The position numbers were made by a program, and so were the translations under genes. Positions 2,050 through 53,087 of a DNA stretch of 64,000 nt are shown piece after piece. The notes beneath the pieces were generated by a model. The model did no database searches. It saw only the letters and a program-made list of their open reading frames with translations, and was not told the DNA's origin. Each line of letters starts with the position of its first letter. The first letter of the stretch is position 1. The DNA comes from Oscillospiraceae bacterium (GTDB lineage Bacteria; Bacillota; Clostridia; UMGS1810): positions 276-64,275 of the forward strand of contig SVJU01000008.1 of assembly GCA_015068825.1 (NCBI GenBank), written 5' to 3'.

Positions 2050-3423
2050 CTGATACACATTAAAAAACTGATTACATTTTTAATTTGTTTTATACTTATT
2101 TTGGTTTTTTCATCCTGTAACGACATAAAAAACAAAAATGTAACCGAAATTACAATATGGAGCTCGTCAACAAGCTCAAAGGTTGAATACGAAAATCTTG
2201 TTGATAACTTCAATCAGACGATTGGAAAAGAAAAAAACATTTATATCAATTACATAACAATTGATTCTCTTCTTATAAAAGAAAGGTTGAGCGCAGCCTT
2301 TGAAGAAGGAAATTCTCCCGATATGTTTTTGGGGTTTTCAAAAGAATTTGCTGAAAAAGGATATATAGTTCCAATTAAAGAGCTTGAAGGCGGAAATGAG
2401 TTTTTAAAAGATTTTGGAAGTGTTCCTATGAGGAGTGAAAACTCATTAAACGAAGATGTGTATTGCCTGCCGATATCGGTTACCACACAAGGTCTTTTAT
2501 ATAATAAAGAAATGTTTAAAAAAGCAAACCTTGTAGATGAAAACGGCAATCCTACCCCGCCCGAAACACTTGAAGAATTAAGAGAGTATGCAAAAATACT
2601 TACCAATCCAGATAAGGATGAATACGGAATAGTTCTTCCGCTTGCGTGGGGTAGCTGGTATGGAAGCGATATCCGCTCGCTTATGATGAGCTCGTGCGGA
2701 TTTCAGGAGTTTAATCCTGTTACAGGCAAATACGATTATTCAGGCGCAGTTCCTATAATGGAAACATTTTTGGGCATAAAAGAAGATAAAACTTATGTTC
2801 CCGGTGCAGAAAAAATAGATAACGATACCGCAAGAGCATTGTTTGCATCAGGCGGTGTGGGAATGAAATTTGGTTTCAGCTTTGATGTGGGTGTTTTAAA
2901 TGACCAGTATCCTGCAAATATTGACTGGGGTGTTGCACCGTTTCCTGTGGCGGATAGAAATAATAAGTATAAGCAGAGAATGTCGTACGGATATTCGTTT
3001 TGCGTAACAAAAAAAGCAAAAGATACTGTTGATAATAAAAAGCTTATTGAAGTTTTGAATTATTTTACAAGTGATGAAACATTAGAAAAATTTTACTTAA
3101 GCGGTACAAATGTTCCTTATAAATTGTCAATAGTTGACAATGTAAAAATTGACGAAAGCAAAATAAAAAAAGGCTGGAAGGATTTTTACGACCTTGTAAA
3201 AATAAGCGCAATATATCCCGAAATACCCGTTAATAATCTGGCATCATCCCAAAGAATTGACAATTGCTTTGTAGAAAATGTGTGGACAGGAAAGATGACG
3301 CCTTATGAATGTGCAAAATTAAGTGCAGACGAAATTAATGCATCGGTTTTTGAATATTATCAAAAATTACCCGATGAAGAATTTAATAAGTTTTTAATTC
3401 CCGATTGGGATATAAAAAGATAA
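2050..3423 (+). CDS. Sugar ABC transporter substrate-binding lipoprotein (CUT1 type), probable CTG start
   Basis: AAGGAGGT at 2035-2042, 7 nt before CTG 2050, with an in-frame TAA just upstream. This start gives MIHIKKLITFLICFILILVFSS-C (lipobox). SBP motifs ITIWS, GLLYNKEMFKKA, WGVAPFP. Confidence 0.85.
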   Translation: MIHIKKLITFLICFILILVFSSCNDIKNKNVTEITIWSSSTSSKVEYENLVDNFNQTIGKEKNIYINYITIDSLLIKERLSAAFEEGNSPDMFLGFSKEFAEKGYIVPIKELEGGNEFLKDFGSVPMRSENSLNEDVYCLPISVTTQGLLYNKEMFKKANLVDENGNPTPPETLEELREYAKILTNPDKDEYGIVLPLAWGSWYGSDIRSLMMSSCGFQEFNPVTGKYDYSGAVPIMETFLGIKEDKTYVPGAEKIDNDTARALFASGGVGMKFGFSFDVGVLNDQYPANIDWGVAPFPVADRNNKYKQRMSYGYSFCVTKKAKDTVDNKKLIEVLNYFTSDETLEKFYLSGTNVPYKLSIVDNVKIDESKIKKGWKDFYDLVKISAIYPEIPVNNLASSQRIDNCFVENVWTGKMTPYECAKLSADEINASVFEYYQKLPDEEFNKFLIPDWDIKR

Positions 3424-3448
3424 ATTTATAAAAATGGAGGAAATTTTT

Positions 3449-5335
3449 ATGAAAAGATGTTTAAAAATTATGTTGGCTGTTATGTTGGTAATGACAATGA
3501 TCATTCCTACTTTAGCAGTAAATGCAGCTACGGTTACTACAAATAAAGGTTATGTTTTGGTTGAAGAGGATTTTGAAAGCTTTGGTGCTACTGAACAAAT
3601 GAATTATTCAACTATGACAACAGAAACAGAATATCCAATTGGTGGAGAAAACACAAAATGGGTTTTGCAAACAAATTCAGGAAAAATATTTAACTATACA
3701 AATGCCTTTATCACTAATAGCGGTACTGAGACATCACCAAATATGGCGCTTTCTCTAAGTTCCGGTGGTCTTGTGTTTGAGAGTGATATTACCAGGCGTT
3801 CTGCAGTGTATTATAATGGAGACTATAGCAAAGTTGGAAACAACTTTAAAATTTCTTTTAATTTTAAAAAGAGTACAATAAAGTTAGGCACAGCAGTTAA
3901 ATTTATGCTTTCAGATGATATAAAAAGCTACTATGCATTAAATTTTGAAGGTAAAGCTGACAGACCTGTATGGAATCTATACAAGGTTACAAATAATGGT
4001 ACACCGGAGGTTTTGGTAAGCTCTCCTGAAACTATATCTATCACGAGTGGTACTAATTTTAATGCTGTTAATAACGGTAGTGTTACAATTGTTTATGACA
4101 ACGGAAAAATTTCGTGGGAAATAGATGCTAATAGATACAGTTTAGGTGCATACAAGCACACAGGAACATATACAGATGCAACACCTTTCTCTGCTAAACC
4201 TTCTGAATGTAAATTTGGTTTTTCCACAGATACTGGCAATTCTGCAACAACACTTGCATCATTTGACAACATCAAATTCTCATACTCGGTTTCTAATATT
4301 TCAGAAGATTTTTCAGGTGAAGGTATTACAAAAGATACAGCATTTGCAAATGAATCAGGTGTTCAAAGTGTAAGAACAAATATTACAGGCACAGATTTAT
4401 ATGTTACAACAAGAAGAGTTTCAAATGTAGGCAGACTTATTGCAAAGGTAGACAGTACAGAAAATAAATTAAATATATCGTATACAAATGCTTCTATGTT
4501 TAACATAAACCAAGTAAACAAGCTTGATTTTGTTGAATATAGGGGAAGTGACTTTGAAGGTGTAGGAGAAAACTATACAATTTCTTTTGATTATACATCA
4601 GGACAGAGTGCGAACGCAGGTTACTTTATTTTCGGACTTGAAAATAATGGTGAAGAAGATTTTGAATATAATGATTATTATGTTCTTGCGTTTAGTGGAA
4701 AAGGCGAGGTTGCAAATCATATAAATAATAATGAATACACAATTCCTGGCTGGGAAATAAGAAAAATGACAGGTGGAGATACCTGGTCTGATACAATAGT
4801 TTCTTCAGATTATACAATTACTCATGACCCGAATGCAGAAGGAGCTTCTGTTGATAATACCATAAAAGGTACTTCAATAAAAGAGGCAAGTGTAATTTTA
4901 ACAGTTAATAATGGAGTTGCTACTGTTACTGTTGACCATGCAAAAGATGACGGAACCCCAGATGTAAAAACCTTTAATATTACACCTAAAGGAAACCGTT
5001 TTGGTTTTTCTCACGGTGGTACTTTCGCAGGAAGTGAAAGTGCATCCCCTCACTCTATTGACTTTGATAACATTGTTCTAACAGCAAACAAAAAAGCTGT
5101 TGAGCCAATTGACGGCAAGGTTTATGTTTATGGAGGAAAATTTGCACAAAAAGCTGGTATGCTTTTATTTGAAGTTCCAAACGGAAACAATGTATCTTAC
5201 CATACTGCTCCTATAACATTAACAACACACGAGCAGGCAACTGCAAATATCCCAGAAGGTGCAAGCAAAGTGTTCTTCTGGAACAATTTTGAAAATATTT
5301 ATCCCCTTAACCCAAGCGTTGAAATTACACAATAG
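3449..5335 (+). CDS. Secreted protein with two lectin-like beta-sandwich regions and a C-terminal KVFFW-x7-PL motif
   Basis: GGAGG before ATG 3449; signal peptide (..LAVNA-A); Thr/Ser/Asn/Gly-rich regions ending FDNIKF and FDNIVL; no SLH or LPXTG. Confidence 0.6.
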   Translation: MKRCLKIMLAVMLVMTMIIPTLAVNAATVTTNKGYVLVEEDFESFGATEQMNYSTMTTETEYPIGGENTKWVLQTNSGKIFNYTNAFITNSGTETSPNMALSLSSGGLVFESDITRRSAVYYNGDYSKVGNNFKISFNFKKSTIKLGTAVKFMLSDDIKSYYALNFEGKADRPVWNLYKVTNNGTPEVLVSSPETISITSGTNFNAVNNGSVTIVYDNGKISWEIDANRYSLGAYKHTGTYTDATPFSAKPSECKFGFSTDTGNSATTLASFDNIKFSYSVSNISEDFSGEGITKDTAFANESGVQSVRTNITGTDLYVTTRRVSNVGRLIAKVDSTENKLNISYTNASMFNINQVNKLDFVEYRGSDFEGVGENYTISFDYTSGQSANAGYFIFGLENNGEEDFEYNDYYVLAFSGKGEVANHINNNEYTIPGWEIRKMTGGDTWSDTIVSSDYTITHDPNAEGASVDNTIKGTSIKEASVILTVNNGVATVTVDHAKDDGTPDVKTFNITPKGNRFGFSHGGTFAGSESASPHSIDFDNIVLTANKKAVEPIDGKVYVYGGKFAQKAGMLLFEVPNGNNVSYHTAPITLTTHEQATANIPEGASKVFFWNNFENIYPLNPSVEITQ

Positions 5336-5358: not shown

Positions 5359-7587
5359 ATGATTTACAAAAGTGCAATCAAAAAGTTAATATGCACTGTG
5401 CTTATATTTGGCATTTCGGTGAATATGAATGTCTTTGCATCAGAAAAAGTTCAACTTGAAGAGCTTCAGGCGGCAATTAATGCAATGGACCTTAAAAAAG
5501 CAGAAGAGCTTATTATGACAGATAACTCTGACATAATTGAAAATACTGTTGATGTTGATGTTACTGTAGATGAAAACAACATTTTAACAGAAACTTCAAC
5601 ACTTTTGGTTGGTGCTTCAGATGGTGGAAGATACGACTGGCTTTTCAATGAAGATATGAAAACTTTAAATGATGATTATCTTGCGATAATTGATGATGTT
5701 TATGATATTCCTATATTTCGTTGTGGTTTGCCGGGAAATGCAACAGAAAGACTTAAATTTCCTGAAGACAGAACTGCCGATACATATCTTGAAGATATTA
5801 ATCTTGAAATGTATCGCCCTGATGTAAACTATTCGTCTGCACCTCACGGCACAGGATCAGGAACAGAAGGTAAAGGTGCAGCCGCATTTTTGCAGGCACT
5901 TAAAGTAAATCCCGATTGTAAGTTTTTTGTTATTGTAGATATAGAATGTTCTCGTCCTGAAGATACTGCCAATGTGGTAAGATTTTGTCGTGATCCGAAT
6001 GGTAGTAGTGAATGGGCAAAATTAAGAGCAAGCTGGGGTATTGAAAATCCAATCAATCTTATTGGTATTGAAATGGGTAATGAAAAATACTTTTTCTCAA
6101 CTCCCACACCCGAGCTTGCAAAAAGCGCAACCGACTGGTATATTGAAACATTTAAAAAACATTATGAAGCAGTTAAAGCAGTAGACCCAAATATAGAGTT
6201 ATTGCCTACAATCAACTCAAACTCAACAAGAGGCGGATTCTATGAGTGGAATAGACCTGTTTTAGCAGCACTTTATGAATATGTAAATATAATTTCCTTC
6301 CATTTATATTACAGCGGTTATGAGCTTGCTTATACTTATCAGTGGATTCAGGATACTTTAGACCTTATTGAAGAGGTTTCGGGAGGTAAAAAAATTAAAT
6401 TTGCCTTTACAGAGCATGGCACATGGGAAACAAGAACATATACAAAAAGGCAGGGACTGCAGGGAATTTTACCCACAGCGCAGTTCTATAACCGAATGAT
6501 TAAAAAAGATTACATGCATAGTACAAATGCTTTTTGTTACACTCATACAGGCTGGGCTTTTGTACGAAAACAGGACGACGGAACTTTGCAGCCAACAGGT
6601 ATGAACTATATGCACGCTGTATATGAAAAAAACCTTGGTGACAGAGTTTATGATACTTTGGTAGAGAGTGATTCTCCACTTACAGATGAAATGAGCACAG
6701 CACAAAGATTTACTGTTCTTGCAACTGCCAAAGGCGATAATCAGCTTAAAATATTTATCTGTAACAGAGAACCATATACAGATTTTAATGTAAACTTTAA
6801 GTTTAACAATAATTATACATTGGTTGAAGAAACAGTGTTTACTGCACCAAATATTTATTCTTTGGTTTACAGTGAAAACACAAAGGATGTGTTTACTACA
6901 ACAGTAACACCAAAAAATGAGCCCAATTTTTCATCATATAAAATGCCGTCTAAAAGCTTAGTAGTTCTGACCTTGGAAACAAAATCAAAGCTTCCAAGGT
7001 TGGGCGAGGCGGCAGATAGTGAAGAAGTTACCTACGACGGTGAGAAAAAGTTTATTGACCTTGAAGGTTATTGGGCAGAAAACGAAATTTACAATCTTAG
7101 CGATGCAGGTATTGTAAATGGTGTATCAGCTGATGCTTTCAGCCCTGATACAAAAGTTACAAGAGGCGATTTTGCTCTTTTACTTTACCGCACAATTAAA
7201 AAAGACAAAAAGGTAAGCAATTTTGAAATTTTGGATGTTGGCTTTGATTCTCCTTATTATGAAGCGGTAAATTATCTTGTAAATATGGGTGTTATCCGTC
7301 TTGATAACAATAAATTCAACTTAAATGCACCAATATCGGTTATTGATGCGGCAAGTATGATTTACCGTGCTGATAAAACAGCCGATAAAAAAGCAATTGA
7401 TATGTCGCAAAGATATGATGCATCTGATTTGACCGACTGGCAAAAGGATGTACTTAATTATCAGATAAATGGCGGTGTATTAAGATATTTTTACGAAACA
7501 AAGGTTTTAGAGCCATCTAAACTTCTTACAAGAGGAGAAGCGGCAAGTATTATATTCCGTGTTTTCAACAACATAGAAAAGTATTAA
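5359..7587 (+). CDS. Secreted GH51/GH79-like glycoside hydrolase with C-terminal SLH domains
   Basis: Signal peptide; IEMGNEKY (acid/base) and FAFTEHG (nucleophile); arabinofuranosidase-C-like beta domain; SLH FIDLEGYWAE..GIVNG..FSPDTKVTRGDF plus two degenerate repeats. Confidence 0.75.
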   Translation: MIYKSAIKKLICTVLIFGISVNMNVFASEKVQLEELQAAINAMDLKKAEELIMTDNSDIIENTVDVDVTVDENNILTETSTLLVGASDGGRYDWLFNEDMKTLNDDYLAIIDDVYDIPIFRCGLPGNATERLKFPEDRTADTYLEDINLEMYRPDVNYSSAPHGTGSGTEGKGAAAFLQALKVNPDCKFFVIVDIECSRPEDTANVVRFCRDPNGSSEWAKLRASWGIENPINLIGIEMGNEKYFFSTPTPELAKSATDWYIETFKKHYEAVKAVDPNIELLPTINSNSTRGGFYEWNRPVLAALYEYVNIISFHLYYSGYELAYTYQWIQDTLDLIEEVSGGKKIKFAFTEHGTWETRTYTKRQGLQGILPTAQFYNRMIKKDYMHSTNAFCYTHTGWAFVRKQDDGTLQPTGMNYMHAVYEKNLGDRVYDTLVESDSPLTDEMSTAQRFTVLATAKGDNQLKIFICNREPYTDFNVNFKFNNNYTLVEETVFTAPNIYSLVYSENTKDVFTTTVTPKNEPNFSSYKMPSKSLVVLTLETKSKLPRLGEAADSEEVTYDGEKKFIDLEGYWAENEIYNLSDAGIVNGVSADAFSPDTKVTRGDFALLLYRTIKKDKKVSNFEILDVGFDSPYYEAVNYLVNMGVIRLDNNKFNLNAPISVIDAASMIYRADKTADKKAIDMSQRYDASDLTDWQKDVLNYQINGGVLRYFYETKVLEPSKLLTRGEAASIIFRVFNNIEKY

Positions 7588-7606: not shown

Positions 7607-10549
7607 ATGAAAAAATTTCTTTTACTATTATTATGTTGCATCTTAATAATAAACAGTTCATTTATAGCATTTGCCGACGATCTTGAAGATGAAGAGAAAG
7701 AGCTGTTTGTTGACGGTACCGAAATTAATGCGATTACCGACTATTCTACATACGGTGCGGCTGATGTTACAGAAATGTCAAGTGTAAACTATCTTGACAA
7801 AAACCGTTTTACAGATATAAAAGATGGTGAGCTTTTAAAAAGAGTATCTCTTTTAAGTGCTTTGGGTATTGTCAGCGGTACAGGTGAAGGTAAGTTTTCA
7901 CCGGAGGCGCCTTTTACCCGTATTCAGTTTGTGCTTACAGCACTCAGAATGATTAAATATGATGCTTCAATGTATAACGGTGATGGAGTAGAATTTTACG
8001 ATATAAATAAAGATTATGAATATCTGCCCGAAATTGAAGCGGCAGTAAAGCTTGGCATTATTGCAGGGTTTTCGGATAAAACCTTAAAGCCCGATGCACC
8101 TATAAGCTATCAGGATGCACTTACTGTAATGCTGAGAATTATGGGTTACACCACAAATGCACATTCAAAAGGCGGTTATCCTGACGGATTTATAAAGGTT
8201 GGTGCAGAGCTTGACCTTGATGATGATATTGTTATTAAAGATGATGGTATCTTTACAAGAGCAAATGCTGCCACTCTTTTATACAACTGCCTTCATGCCG
8301 ATTGTTTATGGTCGCCTATAATGGGAAATAAATCTTCTCAGATTGGCGAAATGGGCACAATGCTTGAAGCATATTTTGATATTTATCAATCTTACGGTAT
8401 AATAGAATCAACATACCTTGCAAATATCGGCGATAACGAAAAAGCAACAGATAATACTGTTATTATCGGCGGTGTAAAATATTTTTGCGAAAAACATTCT
8501 TATGCAGATTACATAGGAAAATGTGTTGATGTTTATTACGAAGAAAAAAACAATATTAAAACTATAAAGCATCTTGAAATTTATAACGACGAAAAAGAAA
8601 TTATTATAAAATCTGATGATATTGCAGATTTTGATGATTATACATATCAGTATTACGATGGCAGTAAATTAAAAACTGCAAAAATTGATGTAGGACATAC
8701 TCTTATTTATAACAATAAGAGAAAAATCTCTTACAACAAAGATATCTTTATGCCGAAAAACGGTTATGTAAGACTTTTAAGAACCTGCGATTTTACAGGA
8801 ACAGGTTATAATGTTGTGTTTGTAAATGAATACTTTAACTTCTATGTGGATTCTTTATCTGCAAACGGAAGTATTTTGAAATTTACACCTAATGGCGAAA
8901 CAAGCGGTATGGTTATTGATATGGCAAATGAAGATTTGCTTATGGAAATTTATGACAAAAACGGCAGAATGTCGTCTGATTTGTCTGTTACCGATACTTA
9001 CGATAACGACGGTAATCTTGTTAAAAAATATCTTGTTCCGCCAATTCCCGCAAAATCTGTTATCAGTGTTTTTGCTGATGAAATGGATGATGCTATTGGA
9101 AATCATAAAATTCTGAGCAAAAATGCAACTTACTTAAAAGTGTATATCAATGATGCAAAGATAGAAGGCACAATTGATGAACAGGATTTTGCTTCAAATA
9201 AGCTTGTTATAGGTGATAAAGAATTTGAATTTTCTACCGATAACTTCCTTTTTGAAGATAATGCAATCAAAATTGGCACAGAGGGTACTTTCCTTTTTGA
9301 TTTCAATGGTAAAATAGCGGCTTATATTGAAAAAGGTAAAGACGAATTTATATATGGTTATCTTGTAAATGCTATTGACGGAAGAGATTTTAATGCAGAT
9401 TATAAGTTTAAAATTCTAAAGCCAAACGGACAGATAGAAATGTTTAACTGCGTTGATATAAAAGCATTAAAGCTTAACGGCAAAAAGCTTAAAGATACAA
9501 CTGAGCTTGGAGAAAAATTAAATAAATCTGCAAAGCTTATTGATAAAACCTTTACTATTTCGCAGATTATTAAATATAAGCTTAACGAAGAAAATAAAAT
9601 AAAAGAATTGCAGACTGTTACTGCATCAACAGGAATTGCGACAGGATACGAGGCTGACCATTTAAACAGACATGCACCAAGAGCATCGTATACATCTCCG
9701 CAGTATTTTGGCGGTGCGCTTTTCAGTGCAGACGGTGACATTGTTGTAGAAGGCAGAAAGCTTGCCAGATACTCAAAAAGCGGATTTTATTTTATAGTTC
9801 CCGATGCTGAAACATTTGAAGATAAAGATTACGGGGTTAAAGCGGATACATATTATTTTTCTTCTTCAACAAAAATGGATTTATACAATTGTAACGAAAA
9901 TTTAAGTGCAGATGTAGCTGTAATATACGCAAAAACGGAACTTACACAAAACGACCCGCCGTTTATTGTTGTTAAAAACAAAAAACAGGTTGTTGATGAA
10001 GACGGTATGGGTGTTGTAGCGGTTTCGGGTGTTGACGGATACAGAGAAGCTGAATTTGTTGAAAAAACAGAAGGTGTATTTTCCAATGCCAAAGAAGGCG
10101 ATGTTTATTTCTGTAAAGGTTCATTCAATCAGATAGAAGAAGCAGAAATGATTTATTCGTTATATGATGTTGCAAATCATAACTATGACAGCACCGAGTA
10201 TATAATGAAAACCTTAACAGCCGATAGCGAAACTTTGTATGCCACACCTATGGAGGTTTATGATTACAGTGCTGCCACACGAAGCTTTGTGCTTCAGATG
10301 GGCCCTGATGGTGACGGTGACGGAAAAAGAGATATGCAAAGAGTTTGTTACTGGTCAAATATTTCTACAACCTTTAGATATGGTTGTGTAACATGTAATA
10401 TTTACGACAGGGAAATTGAGCTTAAAACCGGTAATGCAGGCGATATAAGACCTGCAAGAAAGTTCAGTCATAAAGACAGCACAAAAATACTTATTGTAGA
10501 AAGCAGCAACCTTCGTTTCTTTGTTTTGGTCAACGATTACAGAAATTAA
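7607..10549 (+). CDS. S-layer-like surface protein with N-terminal SLH domains
   Basis: Signal peptide; SLH repeats LGIVSG..FSPEAPFTR and LGIIAGFSD..LKPDAPIS; long beta-rich body similar to 41942..43615. Confidence 0.75.
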   Translation: MKKFLLLLLCCILIINSSFIAFADDLEDEEKELFVDGTEINAITDYSTYGAADVTEMSSVNYLDKNRFTDIKDGELLKRVSLLSALGIVSGTGEGKFSPEAPFTRIQFVLTALRMIKYDASMYNGDGVEFYDINKDYEYLPEIEAAVKLGIIAGFSDKTLKPDAPISYQDALTVMLRIMGYTTNAHSKGGYPDGFIKVGAELDLDDDIVIKDDGIFTRANAATLLYNCLHADCLWSPIMGNKSSQIGEMGTMLEAYFDIYQSYGIIESTYLANIGDNEKATDNTVIIGGVKYFCEKHSYADYIGKCVDVYYEEKNNIKTIKHLEIYNDEKEIIIKSDDIADFDDYTYQYYDGSKLKTAKIDVGHTLIYNNKRKISYNKDIFMPKNGYVRLLRTCDFTGTGYNVVFVNEYFNFYVDSLSANGSILKFTPNGETSGMVIDMANEDLLMEIYDKNGRMSSDLSVTDTYDNDGNLVKKYLVPPIPAKSVISVFADEMDDAIGNHKILSKNATYLKVYINDAKIEGTIDEQDFASNKLVIGDKEFEFSTDNFLFEDNAIKIGTEGTFLFDFNGKIAAYIEKGKDEFIYGYLVNAIDGRDFNADYKFKILKPNGQIEMFNCVDIKALKLNGKKLKDTTELGEKLNKSAKLIDKTFTISQIIKYKLNEENKIKELQTVTASTGIATGYEADHLNRHAPRASYTSPQYFGGALFSADGDIVVEGRKLARYSKSGFYFIVPDAETFEDKDYGVKADTYYFSSSTKMDLYNCNENLSADVAVIYAKTELTQNDPPFIVVKNKKQVVDEDGMGVVAVSGVDGYREAEFVEKTEGVFSNAKEGDVYFCKGSFNQIEEAEMIYSLYDVANHNYDSTEYIMKTLTADSETLYATPMEVYDYSAATRSFVLQMGPDGDGDGKRDMQRVCYWSNISTTFRYGCVTCNIYDREIELKTGNAGDIRPARKFSHKDSTKILIVESSNLRFFVLVNDYRN

Positions 10550-12190: not shown

Positions 12191-12218
12191 TTTTATGATG
12201 AAAAATGGGGTAAACACT

Positions 12219-40488: not shown

Positions 40489-40517
40489 TTTATTCCATAA
40501 ATGAAAGAAGAATTTTT

Positions 40518-41456: not shown

Positions 41457-41975
41457 ATGCATTACAAAAACAAAATGGGCCTTATAAGCTCAATAGACAT
41501 AAAAAAAGGTAATCTTGTAAATAGTCTTTCAAAAAATAAAGCATATACTGTTCAAACACTTCTTGATGCTATTGACAAAGCAGGTACAATTATTTCAACT
41601 TCAGGCGGCTCGTCAGGCGGTGGCGGAGGAGGCTCAAAATCGTCGGGCTCAGGCTTTACTCTTAATGGTGTAACAACAATTCTTCCTGAAAATGAAAAGT
41701 TTAATGACATTAACTTATCTTTGTGGGCAAAGGATGCCATTATAAGCCTTAGCGATAAAAATATTCTTTCAGGTTATGAAGACGGAAGCTTTAAACCAAC
41801 AAATTTAATTAAAAGGGAAGAATTTGTAAAGGTTATTGTAAGTGCATTTAATGTGACTGGTGAAGACAAAGAAATTGAATTTTTTGATGTAGAAAAAGAT
41901 AAATGGTATTATCCATACATTAAATCAGCATTTAATTCAGGGATTCGTTATTTGAAAGAAAGCTTTATTACATAA
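41457..41975 (+). pseudogene. Chimeric remnant: probable N-terminus of the second permease fused to a Ser/Gly-linker + truncated SLH fragment
   Basis: Strong RBS (AGGAGG); first ~18 aa then an abrupt switch to a helical end, SGGSSGGGGGGS, SLH1 (WAKDAI..GYEDGSFKP..IKREEF) and SLH2 cut at SAFNSGI. No signal peptide. Confidence 0.65.
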
Positions 41976-43648: not shown

Positions 43649-46381
43649 ATGTTAAAAAAACTATTGGCTCTAATTTGTGTAATGGCAGTTCTTTTTACCT
43701 CATTTACTTTTACAACAGTAAGTGCGGCAGAAGAGTTTGCTCCGGTTGGACTTATGCTTCAACCTGATGTAAGAAATGATGGAAGTTATATGACGATTTC
43801 TTGGAGAAATCCTACAAGTAATACTCTTTCGGCTGTTAAGCTTTATGATGTTACTTCAGGTACTGCTACACTTGTGGATAATATCACAAAAGACGGTGCG
43901 GTAACAACTTTTAGCGATTCAATTTCAAATCAGTACCTTATAGGAAATACCACAACGCGTCTTGATAAAAATTTTGTGTGGTATAGATTAGCTTCTCTTA
44001 CACCGGGCACTTACAAAAAGTACAGACTTGATTTTGAATTTAGTGATGTTTCAAACAACAAATCATACTATCTTGCAGCAGCACCTGTTGCTCAAACAAC
44101 TAATGGTGCATCAAAAACAATTTCAAATAAGATATCAACATATGATTCTATGGCATCTACTACAAATTTCCCATACTTACCAATGGGTTTAGAAACAATA
44201 ACTGAAGAAGGTGGCAATGTTGCATTAAAAGTAAGATTTAATGTAACAGGCTGGTATAGTAATTCAACTTATGGTCAGCTTTTATACAATTTTACACCCA
44301 CAGTTGGCAAAACCTACAAAGTAGGCTTTGATTATAAAGGTACGCCAAGCGATAACAACAGAGTTGGTGTATATGTTCGTGATACTTCAACAGATACTGA
44401 TATAGATAATCTTCCCGATACTGAAACTACTAAAGTAGAAGGTATTGTTATTAAGAATGTTTCTGAATGGAAAACTCATACATATGAAGGAATTTTTACC
44501 CCTACAACAACAAATGTAAAATTTAAATTTAAATTTTTAAATCCCGTAGAAGAAATTATACTTGACAATTTCTTTGTTAAAGAATGTGACGCAGAAGGAA
44601 ACATTTTAGAAGGTGCAACAAACCTTGTATCAAATGGCGATTTATCAAATCTTACCAATGCTTTATCAAGTGCAAAAAATTTATCAGGCAAAGCAGGAAA
44701 TGAAAAAGCAACAATAGAATGGGAAAACGATTCTAGCGCAAGATATTACAAAATCTATAAAGACGGTGCTTTTTACGGTATAGCTTATCCTGAAAGTGAT
44801 GGCACAACAAGCGTTGAATTTGATAACCTTATAAACGATGAAACTTACACATTTGGCGTAAGTGCATATAATCAGGCATTTGCAGAAGGCGAAATTAAAA
44901 CTGTTGATGTAACACCTAAAGAGCCTGCACCTAAAAATCCTATGATTTCAAACCTTTCGGTTAATACATATACATTTGGCGGAACAGGCGGTGCTCTTAC
45001 AGTATCATTCAAAAATCCTGAGGTAGAAGATATTACTTCTATTGAGCTTTACGATGTAAATGGCGATAGTGAAACTAAAATATCAGACACTGCATTTTCA
45101 TTAGATGCAGGTGCTGTAAACGCTTATGTAATTAAAAACCTTACAAATAGTACATTATATAACTATAAATTAAGAGTTACAACCACATCAGATGGTCTTA
45201 AAGAATATGACATTGCCGCAAAACCTGGTGCAGGTGCGTATGCAATGAATTTTAACACAGATTCATCAAATCATTACTGGAATAAAACCTTTGGAAGAAA
45301 AGATAGTAATACTCCATATCCGCCTGTAGATTTCAGAATTGTTCAGAATCCTTTATCTGAAACCAAGGATTATGTATTAAATGTTGTGTCTAATATAAAA
45401 TCTTATGTAGACGGAAATTACGCAAATTTAACTTACAACTTTACAGACCAGATGGCATCAGGTACAACCTACAGATTAAAATTCGACTATATGACATTAG
45501 CGGGCGGTTCAAGACCAAGTGTTTATGTTAACAATTCAGAAATAGGAAAAATCAATCTTGCATCAGATGGCTGGCAGAAAGCAAGCTTTGATTTTACAAA
45601 TAAAAATGCTTCAACCAATGTAATTAAATTCGGGTTTGTAAATCCATTGGAAAGCTTATATATTGATAATTTAGCGATAGTTCCTGTTACAGATGGCGTT
45701 GAAGGTACAAACATTCTTACAAAAGGCGACTTTGATGTTGTAGAGGAAGAAACAAATGAATATTCTGTAATTGATGTAACTGCAGAAGCCTTTGATAAAG
45801 GAGCAACAATTAATTATACTGTTTCGGAAGTAGGTAAATTTATAAAAATTTATGAAGTAACAGAGTTTGGAAAAAATCTTATTTCTATTCAGCAGCCAAC
45901 AAGAAATGGAACAATAACACTTAACAACTTAAAGAATAACAAAACTTATAATCTTATTATGACTACTCAAAACTGGAAAGATGTTGAAGGTGATGGATAC
46001 GAATTTACAGTTACTCCAAAGCCTGAAGATTTGGTTATAGGAGAATTTAAGCTATTAAAAGATGCAGAAACTTCTGATACACAAAATCTAACAGGCGGTA
46101 CATATAAAGCAAATGTAAGTGTTAAAAACAACGGCATGGGAGATAACTTTACAGCACAGCTTATTGTTGCAGTATATAACGATAAAAAGCTTGTTTTGGC
46201 AAAAGCAAGTGAAAAAACAACTATTGCACAAACTGATTCAGAGCTTGCTGGTACTCCTTTAACAGTAGAGAATGTTTCTATTCCTTCTGTTGACGATGGA
46301 GATTATACAGTTAAGGTTATGCTTTGGAAGAGTCTTGATGATATGACACCTCTAAAACAGTTTAAACCATACGCAGAATAA
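43649..46381 (+). CDS. Secreted multidomain protein: two Fn3-like/CBM-like/Fn3-like units and C-terminal KVMLW-x7-PL motif
   Basis: Signal peptide (..VSA-AE); repeats ISWRNP..KLYDV and VSFKNP..ELYDV; YKVGFDY..IILDNF and YRLKFDY..LYIDNL CBM4/9-like ends; no catalytic motif recognised. Confidence 0.65.
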   Translation: MLKKLLALICVMAVLFTSFTFTTVSAAEEFAPVGLMLQPDVRNDGSYMTISWRNPTSNTLSAVKLYDVTSGTATLVDNITKDGAVTTFSDSISNQYLIGNTTTRLDKNFVWYRLASLTPGTYKKYRLDFEFSDVSNNKSYYLAAAPVAQTTNGASKTISNKISTYDSMASTTNFPYLPMGLETITEEGGNVALKVRFNVTGWYSNSTYGQLLYNFTPTVGKTYKVGFDYKGTPSDNNRVGVYVRDTSTDTDIDNLPDTETTKVEGIVIKNVSEWKTHTYEGIFTPTTTNVKFKFKFLNPVEEIILDNFFVKECDAEGNILEGATNLVSNGDLSNLTNALSSAKNLSGKAGNEKATIEWENDSSARYYKIYKDGAFYGIAYPESDGTTSVEFDNLINDETYTFGVSAYNQAFAEGEIKTVDVTPKEPAPKNPMISNLSVNTYTFGGTGGALTVSFKNPEVEDITSIELYDVNGDSETKISDTAFSLDAGAVNAYVIKNLTNSTLYNYKLRVTTTSDGLKEYDIAAKPGAGAYAMNFNTDSSNHYWNKTFGRKDSNTPYPPVDFRIVQNPLSETKDYVLNVVSNIKSYVDGNYANLTYNFTDQMASGTTYRLKFDYMTLAGGSRPSVYVNNSEIGKINLASDGWQKASFDFTNKNASTNVIKFGFVNPLESLYIDNLAIVPVTDGVEGTNILTKGDFDVVEEETNEYSVIDVTAEAFDKGATINYTVSEVGKFIKIYEVTEFGKNLISIQQPTRNGTITLNNLKNNKTYNLIMTTQNWKDVEGDGYEFTVTPKPEDLVIGEFKLLKDAETSDTQNLTGGTYKANVSVKNNGMGDNFTAQLIVAVYNDKKLVLAKASEKTTIAQTDSELAGTPLTVENVSIPSVDDGDYTVKVMLWKSLDDMTPLKQFKPYAE

Positions 46382-46397: not shown

Positions 46398-47042
46398 ATG
46401 ATAAAACGAGTACTTGCAGTTTTTCTTACAATTTCATTATTTATATCTTGTTTACCTTGTATCAGTGTTTTTGCACTTAGCTTGGATAAGGACTATGAGC
46501 TTATAAACCTTAATGTCGAAAGTGTGGCAAAAGGTTCTGAGGGGAAAACTATAAGTATATCGTGGAAAAATCCTGATACACCGATAGACAGTATAAAAAT
46601 ATACGATATTACGGGCGAAGAAGAGATTTTAATTACCGATTCTGTTACAACAACGCCACTTTCGTATGTTTGTTATTATGTTGAAAATCTTATAAACCTT
46701 ACTGTTTATGATTTTAAGGTGTCGGTTTTGTTTGAAGATAATGTAAAAAGAGATTACTTTGTATCGGCTGCACCATCAGCCGGTACAAATGAATCTTTGC
46801 TTTCAGATGGTAAGTGGGGATTTAGTTATGCAAGATACGATGCACAAAGCTTTTACCCCGCAGTATTTTACAATGTTTTAAAAGATTCTTCTTTTGATGG
46901 TGGTGCGGCAATTAAAATTGTATCTAATATAGAAAATAAGAAAAACGGTAACTATTCAATTTTAAAATGCGCTTTTCCCAATCTTGAAGAAGGTAAAAAA
47001 TATAATGTAAAAATAAGATATCTGACCTTAATGAGAAATTAA
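46398..47042 (+). pseudogene. 5' fragment of a secreted Fn3-like/CBM-like protein
   Basis: Signal peptide; aligns with the second repeat of 43649..46381 but breaks mid-domain at KYNVKIRY. Confidence 0.6.
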
Positions 47043-47053
47043 GCACACTAAAA

Positions 47054-50000
47054 ATGCTTATAACCGAATGTAACAAAAAAGGTTTATCGGTTGATTATGA
47101 GATTGTAAACTGTGCTACAATAGAAAAATTTATTGATATAATGAAAGAAGATTTTTATGTTTATAATGAATTTGAAAGAGCAAATTCATATTATGAAAAG
47201 CTTATTTTGTTATATGAAGAAAGTTATAATAACATACAAAAATACCTTGATGGAACTTTGGAGCCTAAAAGTGTTGGTGAATATGTAAATAACGGCATAA
47301 ATATAGAGGGTAACAATGTTACATCAATGATGGAAAAAGATAATGTGTTAGAAAAAGAAAATATCTTTTTAAACGGATACGGACATTTTTCATACACGGT
47401 AAACGACTTTGATAAATTTAACAATTTTGGCGCAAATGCCGTTTCGTTAGGTGTTAAATTTTATGATGTTGTAACAAGAAAAAATCCTTGCGAAAACTGG
47501 AATATTTATCAAAGAGGAGTTATTGAAGACTATACGGTTGAAATGTCTTCAAAAGAAAAATTAAACGGGAATTATTCTCTGAAAATTACCCGAAGTGATG
47601 AGTGGGCTAACAATAAATCTTTTCATGTCAGACAAACGGTTAAAGTAAAGCCAAAAACCACTTATGTTTTTGGCTTGTGGGCAAAAGCGGAAAATGTAAA
47701 GGATTGTCATTTTAGCGGGCATGGACTTATAGATTCAAATTATGGGCTTTCGCAAAGAGAAAGACATGATTTGAGTGGAAGCTATGACTGGAAAAACTTT
47801 GAATTTACATATACAACAGGCGAAAATGAATATCTTTTTGAATTAATTATACCGTGTCTTAACAAAACGGACGCTCTTTATATAGATGATGTATATGTTA
47901 AAACACTTAATAGCGATGAAAATCTTATTTTAAATTCAGGATTTGAAAATGCTTATCAGAAAGATGAAGAGTTTTCGATATATGATGGTCATTTAGAAAA
48001 GCTTATCTGCGATTTAAATTATGCTTATGAAAACAGATTAGCGGTAAATCTTGGACTTGGTATTCATTTTATGCCCGAATATATTTTTGAGATTTATCCT
48101 GATTTAAAGGATGAAAACGGAACTTATCCAAGCTATATGGGATTTAACCCTACACATCCAAAAATAAAAGAAATGATAACCATATTTTTAAATGCGGTTA
48201 TTCCAAAAATAAAAGGCCATCCTGCAATTGTTGGCATTTGTGTAGCAAACGAGCCAAATTTTCAATGCTTTAATACATCGTATTATGAGCCGTTATGGCA
48301 ATATTATCTTGAAAATATGTACTCTGGTAGTATAGAGGACTTTAATAATAATTGTGATACTGATTATGAAGATTTTGGTGATATAAAATTCTCTCATGCA
48401 CAGGATTTTACACCATTAAAATATCATCTTTTAAGATATAACGATACTATAATGTATGAGTATTTAACTTATATCACACAAGGTGTAAAAAATCTTGCTC
48501 CAAATATAAATGTATTTGCAAAAAATCTTCCTGCGATAAGGGCACACGGTAAAAAATCTTTATCACATGGAATAGATATAGAAAAATTTGTGGGTGTTTT
48601 TGATGTAAATGGCTGTGATGCAATGCATTATATCGACCATTCAGAATATCCTATTTTAGCGAAAATGGAGTGGTATGATTTATTATCTTCTGTAGAAGAC
48701 TTACCTGTTTTTAATACAGAAGACCATCTTACAAGAGATAATTACAGTTTGAATAGCTGTGAAGATATTGTATTAACATCTTATGCTGATATGTGGCAGG
48801 GAGCTGTGCATGGAAGAAGAGCATCCATTGTGTGGATGTGGGACAGAGATAAAACAAAGCTTGAAGGAGTATATTTAAATTCAAATATGCTTGTCCGACC
48901 TGATATAGTTGCAAACAATGGCAAACTGTTTTTGGATATGCAGCGATTATCTAATGAATTATACGCACTAAACAATGCAAAAAAAGAAGTTGGAATACTA
49001 TATTCGTATAATTCTATGGTATATGAGCCTTCATATTTAAACAGTGTTTATCTTGCATATACAAATGCACTTTATTTAGGTCAAAGACCATTATTTGTTG
49101 CAGAAAGCCAGCTTGATAAACTATCTGATTTAAAAGTTCTTATAATACCCGAAGCGATATCGGTTTTTGATAAAACTTATGAAGAAATATTAAAGTTTAA
49201 ACAAAATGGCGGAAAGCTTATTATCATAGGCGAAAATTCTCTTAGCAAAAATGAATTTTTAAAAGAGAGAAACATTGAAGATATAAAACAAGATATTACT
49301 GTTATTCCAACATATGAAACACAAAATTCTGAGATTGCAAATATAGAAGGTTTAAATGAAAGTTTAAAACAGGCATTTGAAGAAGAAGGACTTTTAAACA
49401 TTAAAGTAATAAACTTGGAAGATGGCAGTATGGCAGATGATGTTGAATATACAATTGGTACACTTAATGGAAATACACTTATAAATTTGTGTAATTACTC
49501 TTATGAAGAAAAAGAGGTTTATATCACACATGATGGTGTGAATATGGAAAATATGGTTGAGCTTATAAGTGGCAAAAATATAGAAAATGTGATTAAGCTT
49601 GAGCCGTATAAACCAATTCTTATAAGATACGGTTACAATACGCCTTTTATAAATAAAGAGGCAGAAGATGAAGATATAAAAGAATACGAAAAGATAAAGC
49701 ATCTTCTTCCTAATCCTGTAATAGACGGAAAAGATGACATTATAAAATGCTATGACAAAGTGTGGCAAATAGCTTTTTCCAACATAAAAAAGCCCGAGAA
49801 GGGCAGCGGATTTATTACTAATTTTATTGATACTGCATTTAATGGTGCGCTTTTTATGTGGGATTCGTCTTTTATACTTATGTTTGCAAAATATGCAAGA
49901 AGAGCTTTTGATTTTCAAAAGACACTTGATAATTTTTATGCAAAACAGCATCTTGACGGTTTTATTTGCCGTGAAATAAGAGAAAGTGACGGTGGCGATT

Positions 50001-51079
50001 ATTTTGCCCGTCACGACCCAATAAGTACAGGTCCTGACATAATGGGCTGGTGCGAATGGGAGTATTATGTTGCAACAGGCGATGAAAAAAGGCTTAAAGA
50101 TGTGTTTGATCCTTTACTTGCATATCATAAATGGAATATGGAAAACCGCACCTGGCGTGACGGAAGCTACTGGTCATCGGGCTGGGGATGCGGTATGGAT
50201 AATACGCCTCGTCTTATGAAAGGTTACGATGTAAGCTTTTCGCATGGGCATCAGGTGTGGATTGATACTTGTTTTCAGGCGGTTTTAAGTGCAAAGGTGC
50301 TTATTAAAATGGCAAAAAAGCTTAACCGGTATGATGAGGTTAAGTTTCTTGAAGATGAGGTTTTAAATCTTGAAAAAATCATAAATAATGAGCTTTGGGA
50401 TGATGATACTGCCTTTTATTATGATAAATGGAAAAACGGAAAGCTTAATATGGTAATGAGTGTGGCATCGTACTGGGGACTTTTGTCTGAAAGTGTTCCT
50501 GATGAAAGAAAAGAAGGTTTTATTTCGCATCTGGAAAATGAAAACGAGTTTAAACGCACTCATATGGTGCCGTCATTGTCGGCATCAGATGCTAATTTTG
50601 TTCCGACAGGCGGGTATTGGTGCGGTTCTGTGTGGGCACCTACTACATATATGATTTTAAAAGGTCTTGAAAAGCAGAACAAATTAAATCTTGCTCACAA
50701 AATTGCTTTAAACCATGTTGAAAATGTTGTAAAATGCTTTTGTGATACAAATACTGTCTGGGAAAATTATTCTCCCGATGAATTTGGAAAAAATTCTTCT
50801 AAAAGAGGAGATTTTGTTGGCTGGACAGGTCTTGTGCCTATTGCTGTTTTGTTTGAATTTGTTATGGGAATAAAAAGCAATGTACCTGAAAATAAAATTG
50901 TATGGGATGTTAATTTAACCTGCCGTCACGGTATAAAAAACTATCCTTTCGGACCTGATAAGACAATTGATCTTATTTGTGAAGAGAGAAAAAGCGAAGA
51001 CGAAAAACCCGTAATTTATAAAAGCAATAACGATGTAGAAGTATACATAAACTGGAAGGGCGGAAATTTTAAAATTTAG
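47054..51079 (+). CDS. GH42-like hydrolase with CBM4/9-like insert, fused in frame to an MGH1/GH63-like (alpha/alpha)6 hydrolase; probably 5'-truncated
   Basis: VANEPNF, FNTEDH and WQGAVHG (GH42-like); QTVKVKPKTTYVFGLWAK (CBM); FMWDSSF, WGCGMDNTPR, YWCGSVWAP and WENY (GH63-like). No RBS; frame open from 47006. Confidence 0.65.
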   Translation: MLITECNKKGLSVDYEIVNCATIEKFIDIMKEDFYVYNEFERANSYYEKLILLYEESYNNIQKYLDGTLEPKSVGEYVNNGINIEGNNVTSMMEKDNVLEKENIFLNGYGHFSYTVNDFDKFNNFGANAVSLGVKFYDVVTRKNPCENWNIYQRGVIEDYTVEMSSKEKLNGNYSLKITRSDEWANNKSFHVRQTVKVKPKTTYVFGLWAKAENVKDCHFSGHGLIDSNYGLSQRERHDLSGSYDWKNFEFTYTTGENEYLFELIIPCLNKTDALYIDDVYVKTLNSDENLILNSGFENAYQKDEEFSIYDGHLEKLICDLNYAYENRLAVNLGLGIHFMPEYIFEIYPDLKDENGTYPSYMGFNPTHPKIKEMITIFLNAVIPKIKGHPAIVGICVANEPNFQCFNTSYYEPLWQYYLENMYSGSIEDFNNNCDTDYEDFGDIKFSHAQDFTPLKYHLLRYNDTIMYEYLTYITQGVKNLAPNINVFAKNLPAIRAHGKKSLSHGIDIEKFVGVFDVNGCDAMHYIDHSEYPILAKMEWYDLLSSVEDLPVFNTEDHLTRDNYSLNSCEDIVLTSYADMWQGAVHGRRASIVWMWDRDKTKLEGVYLNSNMLVRPDIVANNGKLFLDMQRLSNELYALNNAKKEVGILYSYNSMVYEPSYLNSVYLAYTNALYLGQRPLFVAESQLDKLSDLKVLIIPEAISVFDKTYEEILKFKQNGGKLIIIGENSLSKNEFLKERNIEDIKQDITVIPTYETQNSEIANIEGLNESLKQAFEEEGLLNIKVINLEDGSMADDVEYTIGTLNGNTLINLCNYSYEEKEVYITHDGVNMENMVELISGKNIENVIKLEPYKPILIRYGYNTPFINKEAEDEDIKEYEKIKHLLPNPVIDGKDDIIKCYDKVWQIAFSNIKKPEKGSGFITNFIDTAFNGALFMWDSSFILMFAKYARRAFDFQKTLDNFYAKQHLDGFICREIRESDGGDYFARHDPISTGPDIMGWCEWEYYVATGDEKRLKDVFDPLLAYHKWNMENRTWRDGSYWSSGWGCGMDNTPRLMKGYDVSFSHGHQVWIDTCFQAVLSAKVLIKMAKKLNRYDEVKFLEDEVLNLEKIINNELWDDDTAFYYDKWKNGKLNMVMSVASYWGLLSESVPDERKEGFISHLENENEFKRTHMVPSLSASDANFVPTGGYWCGSVWAPTTYMILKGLEKQNKLNLAHKIALNHVENVVKCFCDTNTVWENYSPDEFGKNSSKRGDFVGWTGLVPIAVLFEFVMGIKSNVPENKIVWDVNLTCRHGIKNYPFGPDKTIDLICEERKSEDEKPVIYKSNNDVEVYINWKGGNFKI

Positions 51080-51143
51080 TTTACTTTTTTAAAATTTTGT
51101 ATTAATATAAATGTAATAATGTTATTTTGAAAGGGAGAGTGCT

Positions 51144-53087
51144 TTGAAAATTAAATTCTATCGCAGCAGCAAGTTGTTTGTTAAATTTTTCATATCATAT
51201 TTAATTTTACTTTGCTTTTCATTGACTATATTTGGTGTGGTATATACAAAATTCGAAAAAGACAAAATAGATTATTTTTACAAATATAATATTTCTATGC
51301 TTGAACAGTCAAAGCATATTATAAATAATTACATTTCCGAGGTAGAGCTTCTGGTAGAAAATTTTGAGTCAAATTCAGTTATTCACTCTTTGTGCAACGG
51401 TACAAGGAGTTTAGATGATTTTAAGAATAACAACTACATAGACTTAACAAGAATACTTTACGAGGTTAAAGCGCGTACTGAGATTGTAGACAATGTATAT
51501 CTTTACATAACGGGCAAGGAAATGGTTTTGTCAAGTACGGGTGTTTTGAGCGCGAAACAGTTTTACAATACCAACGACCAGTATAAAAAAATGGAATATT
51601 CTGATTTTCTTGCAAATTACCTTAACGATTTCCACTATAAAAAATTCTGGGGAACAGGAATATCAGGAAAGCTTGGCCGTTCATACATAACTTATTCTCA
51701 AAGCCTTCCAAGAGAGAATTATCAGAATTCTGAATATAAGCTTTTTGTTCAGCTTAATCCTGAATGGTTTTCCAATGTATTAAACCCTGTTGCAGGAGCT
51801 AATGATGCGCTTATGATGATTGTTAATAAAAACGGGGAAATAATTTATAAAAATAACAAAGAAACAAAAATAAATACAAAAAGCTTAGTCGGACATCTTT
51901 TTAAAAGCAGTGATGTAATTGAGCTTACCGATACAAAAGAAATGATTACATATACTAAATCAAAGGAAGATAATGGCTGGATTTACATTGTTGCTGTTTC
52001 AAAAAAAGAATTTCTTAGCGAAATTACCCAGTTTAAATATCTTATTTTACTTTTGTCGGCAGGATACCTTATTTTTGGGGTGTTTTTATCACAGCTTCTT
52101 TTAAAGAAAAATTACCGTCCTATCAAGCTTATGATAGATAAGCTCAGCAAAAATGCCGATGCGAAAAATGATTACCTTGATGAAATGGATTTTATCCATT
52201 CAGTTGTTGATGAGCTTGCGGCAAGCAACAAAGATATGAAAAATGTTATTACAAAACAGAGCGAGCAGATGAAAAGCGATGCTTTGTGGGATATAATATC
52301 AAACAATGTATCTTCTGAAAATATTAATTCAATGATTAAAAAATTCGATTTTGTATTTTCGCATGATAATTATGCAGTTGTTGTTGTAAGTGCAGGCGAT
52401 ATTGAAAATTATTCAGACGATGAAAAAAGTGTTATTTACTATGCAATAAATAATATGGCAGATGAGCTTGTAAGTACACTTTATGTTTACGAAAAACTTA
52501 TCGATACATCAGGTAATATGGTGTTTATTGTAAATGTTGATGATGATAATGAGGATGCATTTATAGAAGATACAAAATTTGTATGCACACTTTTATCTGA
52601 TGTTATGACAAAAGAGTTTTCTATTGGGGTGGATATAAGTATAAGTTCATTAAGAAAGGGAATAGAAAGCTTATCAAATTCTTATAATGAAGCGATTGCC
52701 GCTTTGGCGGCAAACAGCGGAAAAATTACCGATTACAGAGATATTCAGAACAATCGCTCACTTAAAATGATTGCTGATATTGAAGAATATATTGATGCTC
52801 ATTATATGAACAACAATCTTAGCAATACGGTTATTGCAGATGAATTTAACATTACAGGACAGTATTTATCGGTTTTGTTTAAAAAATATAAAAAAGAGAA
52901 TTTGCAAAATTACATTGCCCGTGTAAGAGTTGAATATGCAAAAGAGCTTTTGAAAAATAATAAATATACCGTTTTTCAGATTGCAAATATGGTAGGATAT
53001 TCAAATGACATTGGTTTTATAAGGGTGTTTAAAAAATTAGAGGGTATAACACCGGGTAAATTCAGGCAGATGCATTCAAATAAATAA
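51144..53087 (+). CDS. Membrane-anchored sensor-AraC one-component regulator (YesS-like)
   Basis: Two TM helices flanking an extracytoplasmic Cache-like region; C-terminal AraC HTH (YLSVLFKK..IANMVGYSNDIGFIRVFKK); GGGAG before TTG. Confidence 0.85.
   Translation: MKIKFYRSSKLFVKFFISYLILLCFSLTIFGVVYTKFEKDKIDYFYKYNISMLEQSKHIINNYISEVELLVENFESNSVIHSLCNGTRSLDDFKNNNYIDLTRILYEVKARTEIVDNVYLYITGKEMVLSSTGVLSAKQFYNTNDQYKKMEYSDFLANYLNDFHYKKFWGTGISGKLGRSYITYSQSLPRENYQNSEYKLFVQLNPEWFSNVLNPVAGANDALMMIVNKNGEIIYKNNKETKINTKSLVGHLFKSSDVIELTDTKEMITYTKSKEDNGWIYIVAVSKKEFLSEITQFKYLILLLSAGYLIFGVFLSQLLLKKNYRPIKLMIDKLSKNADAKNDYLDEMDFIHSVVDELAASNKDMKNVITKQSEQMKSDALWDIISNNVSSENINSMIKKFDFVFSHDNYAVVVVSAGDIENYSDDEKSVIYYAINNMADELVSTLYVYEKLIDTSGNMVFIVNVDDDNEDAFIEDTKFVCTLLSDVMTKEFSIGVDISISSLRKGIESLSNSYNEAIAALAANSGKITDYRDIQNNRSLKMIADIEEYIDAHYMNNNLSNTVIADEFNITGQYLSVLFKKYKKENLQNYIARVRVEYAKELLKNNKYTVFQIANMVGYSNDIGFIRVFKKLEGITPGKFRQMHSNK

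Follow-up and report, generated by a model that had tools for sequence, protein, structure and literature searches.

In gut Firmicutes (Roseburia / Eubacterium rectale), Gram-positive polysaccharide utilization loci (gpPULs) unite a CUT1-type ATP-binding cassette (ABC) transporter, a regulator, and secreted carbohydrate-active enzymes (CAZymes) in one co-oriented cluster (PMC5320581). The 64,000 nt stretch of DNA analyzed here (the window) corresponds to C2:276-64275 of an Oscillospiraceae bacterium assembly (GCA_015068825.1, hereafter G000; 2.0 Mb, 62 contigs). It carries two loci, here called locus 1 and locus 2, which belong with these Gram-positive PULs (PMC5320581). Locus 1 shares with them the clustering of transporter, regulator, and secreted CAZymes. 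In contrast to gpPULs, the present loci use anchoring by S-layer homology (SLH) domains and add a conserved, non-catalytic pair of SLH-anchored proteins, which we designate A-type (represented in locus 1 by the gene at 12195; genes are named by their position in the window) and B-type (gene 7607); many loci that carry this pair have no transporter within 10 kb. No description of the A/B pair was found in the literature searched, and the paired A and B families inside glycan loci are new here. We lean slightly towards a joint explanation in which locus 1 is an intact PUL, the pair is a non-catalytic, wall-anchored glycan-binding device of many loci, and locus 2 has decayed.

Two further systems invite comparison. 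The xylan system of Paenibacillus sp. JDR-2 consists of an SLH-anchored depolymerase (XynA1) and an adjacent ABC importer. Locus 1 resembles it in that a wall-anchored enzyme (5359, GH51-like with SLH) is encoded together with the presumed importer of its products, but A and B have no catalytic domain and no counterpart there. The surface glycan-binding proteins (SGBPs) of Bacteroidota PULs (SusD/E/F; levan utilisome, 8a9y) are similar with respect to the proposed non-catalytic, locus-specific capture of glycans at the cell surface. Homology to them is limited to a ConA-like sandwich, however, and in the present loci the anchor is a wall polymer, with neither an outer membrane nor a TonB-dependent transporter.

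The G000 genome (completeness 96%; G+C ~33%) has as its close relatives uncultured Clostridia metagenome-assembled genomes (MAGs) from the Hadza human gut and one complete "Clostridiales bacterium" MAG; two same-genus gut MAGs, G001 and G002, served as reference for locus 2. Domains were assigned by Pfam, NCBIfam, and PDB searches, structures were predicted with AlphaFold2 (AF2), and folds were compared with Foldseek. Using a profile restricted to the B-type body, 12 open reading frames (ORFs) were detected in G000, and these paralogous bodies are ~20% identical. Seven of them lie beside, one gene from, or fused to an A-type gene (both window loci and one each on C42, C39, C3, C6, and C60), and three are fragments or cut at contig ends (C20, C26, C8). 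The neighbors of the pairs in G000 code for GDSL esterases, CBM4_9 proteins, a GH39-like protein with CBM9, a beta-helix protein with SLH, and fucose isomerase. In a small survey of relatives, six loci from other assemblies were read for gene context, and in all six the pair was present among CAZyme or esterase genes: an ortholog of locus 1 (L039), a locus with GH51-like plus SLH (L040), one with a permease, AraC, GH3, and GH38 (L041), locus 2 of G001 with GH28 and a GH42-like protein (L043), one with an esterase, a beta-helix protein, GH88, and GH2 (L044), and one with GH141, CBM4_9, and GH4 (L045).

More broadly, the B-type family comprises 244 clusters (50% identity) at an E-value below 1e-30, with up to ~20 matches per genome. 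The B-type query matches 33 of the 41 related genomes, a count that takes in SLH-only matches; a scan of public genome contigs with the B-type protein gave no matches. Two fusions of A to B are known, both in A-then-B order and independent of each other: a 1844-aa ORF on C60 and the 1453-aa protein P0009 from other samples. Carbohydrate-binding modules (CBMs) were found in five of the seven longer B-family members that were scanned (P0074, P0079, P0109, P0128, P0138), four of them being F5/8-type-C (CBM32-like) and one CBM6; the module is located before the SLH part or C-terminally. An N-terminal extension, estimated from match offsets, occurs in ~16 of the 150 best B-family representatives. 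The pair constitutes a repeated and anciently diverged module, and in this bacterial family many glycan loci possess a copy of their own.

In the AF2 model of the B-type protein (71 sequences, mean predicted local distance difference test score, pLDDT, of 84), a signal peptide and a disordered stretch precede a helical three-SLH module (residues ~67-232) and a body (232-980), which is formed by ~750 aa of short beta strands. The SLH module is similar to 3pyw, with a target-normalized TM-score of 0.70 (0.83 for that of the A-type protein). No Pfam family covers the body. A profile search of PDB sequences and a Foldseek search of PDB both match the SLH part only, and the convincing Foldseek matches are to the SLH module alone (SpaA, Sap). 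DDB1 was rejected as a fold match for the body (TM ~0.1, root-mean-square deviation ~28 Å); matches from a viral library (LEF-3, ligase, polymerase) are equally weak and at most hint at small beta-barrel domains. The signal for internal repeats is weak (best hhalign probability 69%).

With three N-terminal SLH domains behind the signal peptide, followed by a large multi-domain beta body, the B-type protein follows the plan of SLH-type S-layer proteins such as Sap (Bacillus anthracis; 3pyw/6bt4/9g93), EA1, and SbsB (Geobacillus stearothermophilus; 4aq1). In addition, the SLH-anchored surface proteome of G000 is unusually large, with 36 SLH-domain ORFs among ~1750 genes, in about ten of which a C-terminal SLH triplet is immediately preceded by a Ser/Gly linker. 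B-type proteins could therefore be alternative subunits of an S-layer or envelope lattice, with A-type proteins as accessories, and their position in glycan loci could reflect co-regulated remodeling of the envelope rather than capture. We consider this unlikely. Neither sequence nor fold similarity to S-layer assembly domains was detected for the B body (Foldseek, profiles), relatives carry CBM32-like or CBM6 modules, and the occurrence as 12 diverged paralogues per genome, each in a different catabolic locus, is atypical of an S-layer protein. The initial annotation had called the 7607 product S-layer-like, with a remnant at 41942. The SLH triplet is present and the homology of the remnant begins at 41945, but for B-type proteins the term describes the SLH triplet and the layout, not a demonstrated relationship. 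The further idea that a dedicated S-layer-like protein serves as the base of each complex was not borne out, as these searches gave no similarity of the B body to any S-layer assembly domain.

The B body is large, conserved, and always found amid CAZyme genes, and several of the loci have few recognizable depolymerases. This would also be compatible with an unrecognized wall-anchored glycan-active enzyme. However, the invariant residues across the 71 sequences are N369, G521, P732, and G831, and the only acidic residues kept in at least 90% of them are D132, located in the SLH region, and D565. Not one glutamate is conserved, which disfavors a hidden hydrolase; as there is also no fold match of the body to any glycoside hydrolase (GH) or polysaccharide lyase (PL) family, we regard an enzymatic B body as very unlikely.

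The A-type protein has a layout of its own (Table 1). Its head gives a Foldseek probability of 1.0 to CBM66 (4b1m/4azz) at a target TM-score of ~0.5 and reaches ~0.6 with galectins; legume lectins match at the fold level too. The match to chain E of the levan utilisome 8a9y is a weak whole-chain one (target TM-score 0.22), that to CBM66 being clearer. The head is thus predicted to adopt a ConA-like lectin/CBM66-class beta-sandwich fold, and it is homologous to both domains of the free 3434 protein of locus 1 (30% identity over 288 aa between the 12195 and 3434 products, with a further copy inside the latter), for which Pfam, PDB, and NCBIfam searches gave no match. Apart from SLH and Big_2, the A and B families match nothing in Pfam or NCBIfam, and their only parts with a match among solved structures are the SLH module and the lectin-like head. 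The succession of helical domain, Ser/Gly linker, and SLH that had been read from the sequence is confirmed by the model for the 12195 product, and linker plus SLH are also present in the locus 2 ORF 41457-41975. It is also correct that the binding domains differ between the loci, being ConA/CBM66-like in locus 1 and fn3 plus CBM4_9 in locus 2.

We also considered which genes regularly accompany the pair. G000 holds only 7 solute-binding protein (SBP) and 16 permease ORFs of the type found in locus 1 and locus 2. The initial annotation had led to the expectation that homologues of the 7607 protein are located in loci with both ABC transporter and CAZyme genes. A glycan-related context was recovered for the homologues of G000 and, with CAZyme or esterase genes, for the six outside loci, but an ABC gene is found within 10 kb of only 4 of the 12 B-type genes, compared to 7% of all genes (p = 0.0075). 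The pair is stably associated with secreted glycan-active genes; only some of its loci also have a transporter.

Secreted proteins with a C-terminal W-x7-PL tail occur in both loci, as had been noted (products of 3434, 37203, and 43649). The tail is common to three unanchored secreted proteins, is kept in the 43649 orthologs of both G001 and G002, and is rare in G000, with 4 convincing tails among 1751 ORFs (of 4812 internal 40-aa windows examined as a control, 9 match the motif). The pair could accordingly be a docking scaffold of the cohesin/dockerin kind, to which unanchored secreted proteins bind, via A or B, with the C-terminal domain that bears the tail. A non-catalytic SLH-anchored protein among secreted glycan-active proteins is also characteristic of the SLH-anchored cohesin-dockerin cellulosome scaffolds of Clostridium thermocellum (SdbA/OlpB type). 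In contrast to these, no gene of either locus has a cohesin or dockerin match in Pfam. Furthermore, only four tailed proteins face 12 B-type genes, the fourth being encoded ~35 kb from the nearest A/B pair, and tails are absent from the four other pair loci checked (L040, L041, L044, L045). The tails are not general partners of the pair, and we rate docking as highly improbable.

Surface glycan capture by the A/B pair, in turn, is plausible in view of the predicted architecture, the recurrence of the pair in glycan loci, the A-to-B fusions, and the CBM-bearing relatives. The surface layer specified by locus 1 would consist of wall-anchored and free GH51-like enzymes, a free protein with two lectin-like domains, and the non-catalytic SLH-anchored pair. 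In protein A, a helical domain and a flexible Ser/Gly tether would support the lectin/CBM-like head, while the all-beta, multi-domain protein B would be wall-proximal and may be in contact with A. At the cell wall, the pair would bind the target glycan and keep it close to the enzymes; the oligosaccharides cut by these would be handed over to the lipoprotein SBPs and CUT1 permeases for uptake, and expression would be controlled by the membrane sensor of the locus itself. More tentatively, the pair might form a heterodimeric capture device that is the Gram-positive counterpart of the Bacteroidota SGBPs and marks a widespread, unnamed class of utilization loci among uncultured gut Clostridia, each substrate having its own diverged pair; we see this as a possibility rather than as the expected outcome.

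Several points weigh against glycan capture by the pair. Searches of PDB and of the viral fold library revealed neither a recognizable fold nor a ligand site in the B body. The A-type model, based on an alignment of 15 sequences, is only moderately confident (mean pLDDT 67, head ~70). Two B-type genes (C15 and C3:25830) have no A-type neighbor. When the window loci are left out, ABC proximity drops to 2 of 10 genes against the 7% background, which is not significant. The A-to-B fusion on C60 may itself be a decay product because the same locus holds another deletion-type fusion (see below). Finally, a mirror-tree correlation of A and B distances was dropped as evidence, as its significance is due to a single trio of orthologs.

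The intact version of locus 2 in the congeners codes for a GH28 protein, an SBP, permease 1, permease 2 (starting with MQYKNKMGLISSIDIKK), a 672-aa cytoplasmic protein, a 555-aa A-type protein, an 841-aa B-type protein, an 885-aa fn3 protein with tail, a 1443-aa CBM4_9 protein with a GH42 match, and a 1384-aa CBM4_9 protein. Compared to this arrangement, locus 2 of the window has lost about 3.8 kb, 1.2 kb, and 0.55 kb, including most of permease 2, the 5' 310 codons of the A-type gene, and the first 283 codons of the B-type gene. At the first junction, bases 41457-41507 code for the first 17 residues of permease 2 and continue in frame into A-type residues 311-457 (41511-41945). The resulting 172-aa ORF retains the Ser/Gly linker and the first SLH motifs, and matches the linker/SLH region of the 12195 product. 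At the second junction (41945), the reading passes to B-type residue 284 in a different frame. The B-type remnant has neither signal peptide nor SLH; its surviving ORF (42026-43615, 529 aa) shares homology with residues 369-713 of the B-type protein 7607 (24% identity, E-value 4e-13) and has its orthologs in G001 and G002 within genes of 841 aa and 839 aa. The third junction, at ~47015-47021, removed residues 208-391 (~184 codons) from the 1443-aa gene, which is now represented by a 214-aa fn3 ORF (46398) and a 1341-aa ORF with CBM4_9 and a GH63-like domain (47054).

Misassembly of the MAG was considered as the source of these junctions and was ruled out. The window's contigs recur in two Joint Genome Institute (JGI) metagenomes. 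The truncated arrangement was found on a contig of JGI sample 3300032167, and the same 529-aa gene on a contig of 3300018475. Because the truncated forms recur in two samples, the junctions are real. Locus 2 retains a regulator (AraC-type) and enzymes (CE2, GH63-like domain), but a complete transporter is lacking. As judged from the comparison with the congeners, locus 2 of this lineage has neither a working transporter nor a working SLH pair. It is a second locus of the locus 1 kind, inactivated by three deletions. The initial annotation had proposed that each locus builds its own surface glycan-capture complex. This is in line with the recurrence of the SLH pair in glycan loci, but locus 2 of this genome, with permease 2 all but deleted and both genes of the pair truncated, cannot build such a complex.

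Secreted hydrolases of clan GH-A had been claimed for both loci, which is a reasonable reading for locus 1 (5359, 10565). In locus 2, the evidence is indirect and consists of a GH42 Pfam match recorded for the ortholog in G001 of the gene now split into 46398 and 47054, whereas the recognizable catalytic domain of the 47054 product itself is the GH63-like one. This GH63/MGH1-like C-terminal domain (residues ~990-1260; window 49720-51079) has no counterpart in the 1443-aa orthologs of G001 and G002, and the 47054 gene is probably a chimera from a further rearrangement.

Additional rearranged genes were observed elsewhere in G000. In a 1363-aa ORF at C60:48355-52446 (minus strand), ~300 N-terminal residues of a CUT1 permease (51% identity with the 14938 product) are followed by a long non-membrane protein that contains a GNE motif, and there is no second permease after this ORF. 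It has the appearance of a further deletion-type fusion, located in a third glycan locus of G000. At C6:2640-5597, a B-type gene is cut to 343 aa, and a gene for a large serine recombinase (Resolvase, Recombinase, Zn_ribbon_recom) is found ~330 nt downstream of it, pointing to a mobile element as the cause of the truncation. At C8:28874-35420, a 199-aa fragment matching the B body comes after two ORFs, of 1297 aa (with SLH) and 629 aa, and is probably what is left of another decayed pair.

All components listed in the initial annotation were found in place in both loci (Table 1), and almost every gene of the window is on the plus strand. SBPs and CUT1 permeases are present in each locus (SBPs 2101, 16805, and 38974; permeases 14938, 15931, and 40518), with a single permease in locus 2. 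Likewise, each has a membrane sensor regulator, these being a histidine kinase with five transmembrane segments plus a LuxR-type regulator (18269/19701) in locus 1 and an AraC-type protein with two transmembrane segments (51144) in locus 2. For the first SBP of locus 1, the automatic gene call starts at a TTG (2101) and omits the lipoprotein signal. The in-frame sequence 5' of 2101 gives such a signal, LIHIKKLITFLICFILILVFSSC, directly after an AAGGAGG ribosome-binding site, and therefore the gene probably starts at a non-canonical codon near 2050, in agreement with the coordinate in the initial annotation. CTG or ATA, ~7 nt past AAGGAGG, are the candidate start codons.

The 5359 and 10565 products match GH51 arabinofuranosidases over ~135 aa that cover the GNE motif (PDB 5o7z, E-value 1e-10; NCBIfam ArfA; PF22848 on record); the ArfA match is far under the family cut-off, with only these ~135 aa aligned. 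GNE and TEHG/TEHS motifs can be read in these sequences and are candidates for the catalytic residues. We consider the putative assignment to clan GH-A reasonable. The carbohydrate transporter of locus 1, with two SBPs and two permeases, was counted as complete; no ATPase gene is found in locus 1, and CUT1 systems often use an ATPase supplied in trans. Together with the regulator (histidine kinase and response regulator) and the two GH51-like enzymes, locus 1 thus has the transporter, regulator, and enzymes of a Gram-positive PUL. Its genes are separated by 4-75 nt or have small overlaps, which fits a single operon; a scan of locus 1 for promoter and terminator consensus sequences gave no more sites than in shuffled sequence. 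Locus 1 is predicted to be an intact Gram-positive PUL-type operon.

Table 1. Features of locus 1, locus 2, and the A-type protein. Coordinates are window positions, or residues for the domains of the 12195 product.
Element	Feature	Coordinates	Strand	Basis
Locus 1	Solute-binding lipoprotein 1 (SBP_bac_1); start probable	2050..3423	+	Pfam; upstream in-frame reading; 38% identical to SBP at 16805
Locus 1	Secreted 633-aa protein without anchor, two lectin-like domains, W-x7-PL tail at C-terminus	3434..5335	+	Homology to A-type head
Locus 1	GH51-like (putative clan GH-A) 742-aa protein, C-terminal SLH	5359..7587	+	PDB, NCBIfam, Pfam; 34% identical to 10565 product
Locus 1	B-type 980-aa protein	7607..10549	+	AF2, Foldseek, profiles
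Locus 1	Secreted GH51-like (putative clan GH-A) 541-aa protein, no anchor	10565..12190	+	Paralogue of 5359 product; NCBIfam, PF22848
Locus 1	A-type 928-aa protein	12195..14981	+	Pfam, AF2, Foldseek
Locus 1	Two CUT1-type ABC permeases	14938-15918, 15931-16779	+	Pfam
Locus 1	Solute-binding lipoprotein 2	16805..18196	+	Pfam
Locus 1	Membrane histidine kinase (5 hydrophobic segments) and LuxR/GerE-type response regulator	18269..20441 (regulator at 19701)	+	Pfam, hydrophobicity
Locus 2	Secreted CE2 acetyl esterase (AxeC2-like), W-x7-PL tail	37203..38939	+	Pfam, NCBIfam
Locus 2	SBP (38974) and permease 1 (40518), sole surviving transporter genes	38974..41435	+	Pfam; 77% and 86% identical to G001 orthologs
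Locus 2	Chimeric remnant, 172-aa SLH ORF: permease 2 codons 1-17 fused in frame to A-type residues 311-457	41457..41975	+	Ortholog comparison
Locus 2	B-type remnant, residues 284-841 of intact 841-aa ortholog	41945..43615	+	Ortholog comparison
Locus 2	Secreted fn3 protein, 910 aa, W-x7-PL tail	43649..46381	+	Pfam; tail kept in G001, G002 orthologs
Locus 2	Split remains of a single ancestral gene for a secreted 1443-aa protein (CBM4_9; GH42 match on ortholog)	46398..51079	+	Ortholog comparison
Locus 2	Membrane-bound AraC-type regulator, 2 hydrophobic segments around ~270-aa loop	51144..53087	+	Pfam, NCBIfam
A-type protein	Signal peptide	N-terminus of 12195 product		
A-type protein	Beta-sandwich head, ConA/CBM66-like	88-282		AF2 and Foldseek
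A-type protein	Big_2	405-451		Pfam/AF2
A-type protein	Helical domain, well predicted	453-680		AF2
A-type protein	Disordered Ser/Gly linker	685-736		AF2
A-type protein	Three SLH	738-928		AF2

A family of 631-718-aa proteins without signal peptide is encoded in or beside glycan loci (window 36-1931, window 30468-32624, and L043:6299-8317). Pfam, PDB, and NCBIfam searches gave no match for this family. The copy from G001 is located between permease 2 and the A-type gene and shares 39% identity with the 36-1931 product.

Far less is understood of how polysaccharides are held at the surface of Gram-positive gut bacteria than of the Sus-type systems in Bacteroidota. As the decayed locus 2 illustrates, function cannot be deduced from the gene content of a MAG locus unless relatives are compared. 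Both families of the pair are large and are found within the glycan loci of gut Clostridia that are abundant but uncultured, MAGs from Hadza hunter-gatherers among them. If the pair is a capture device, such loci could be found with it as a marker, and it would provide defined targets for binding and structural work.

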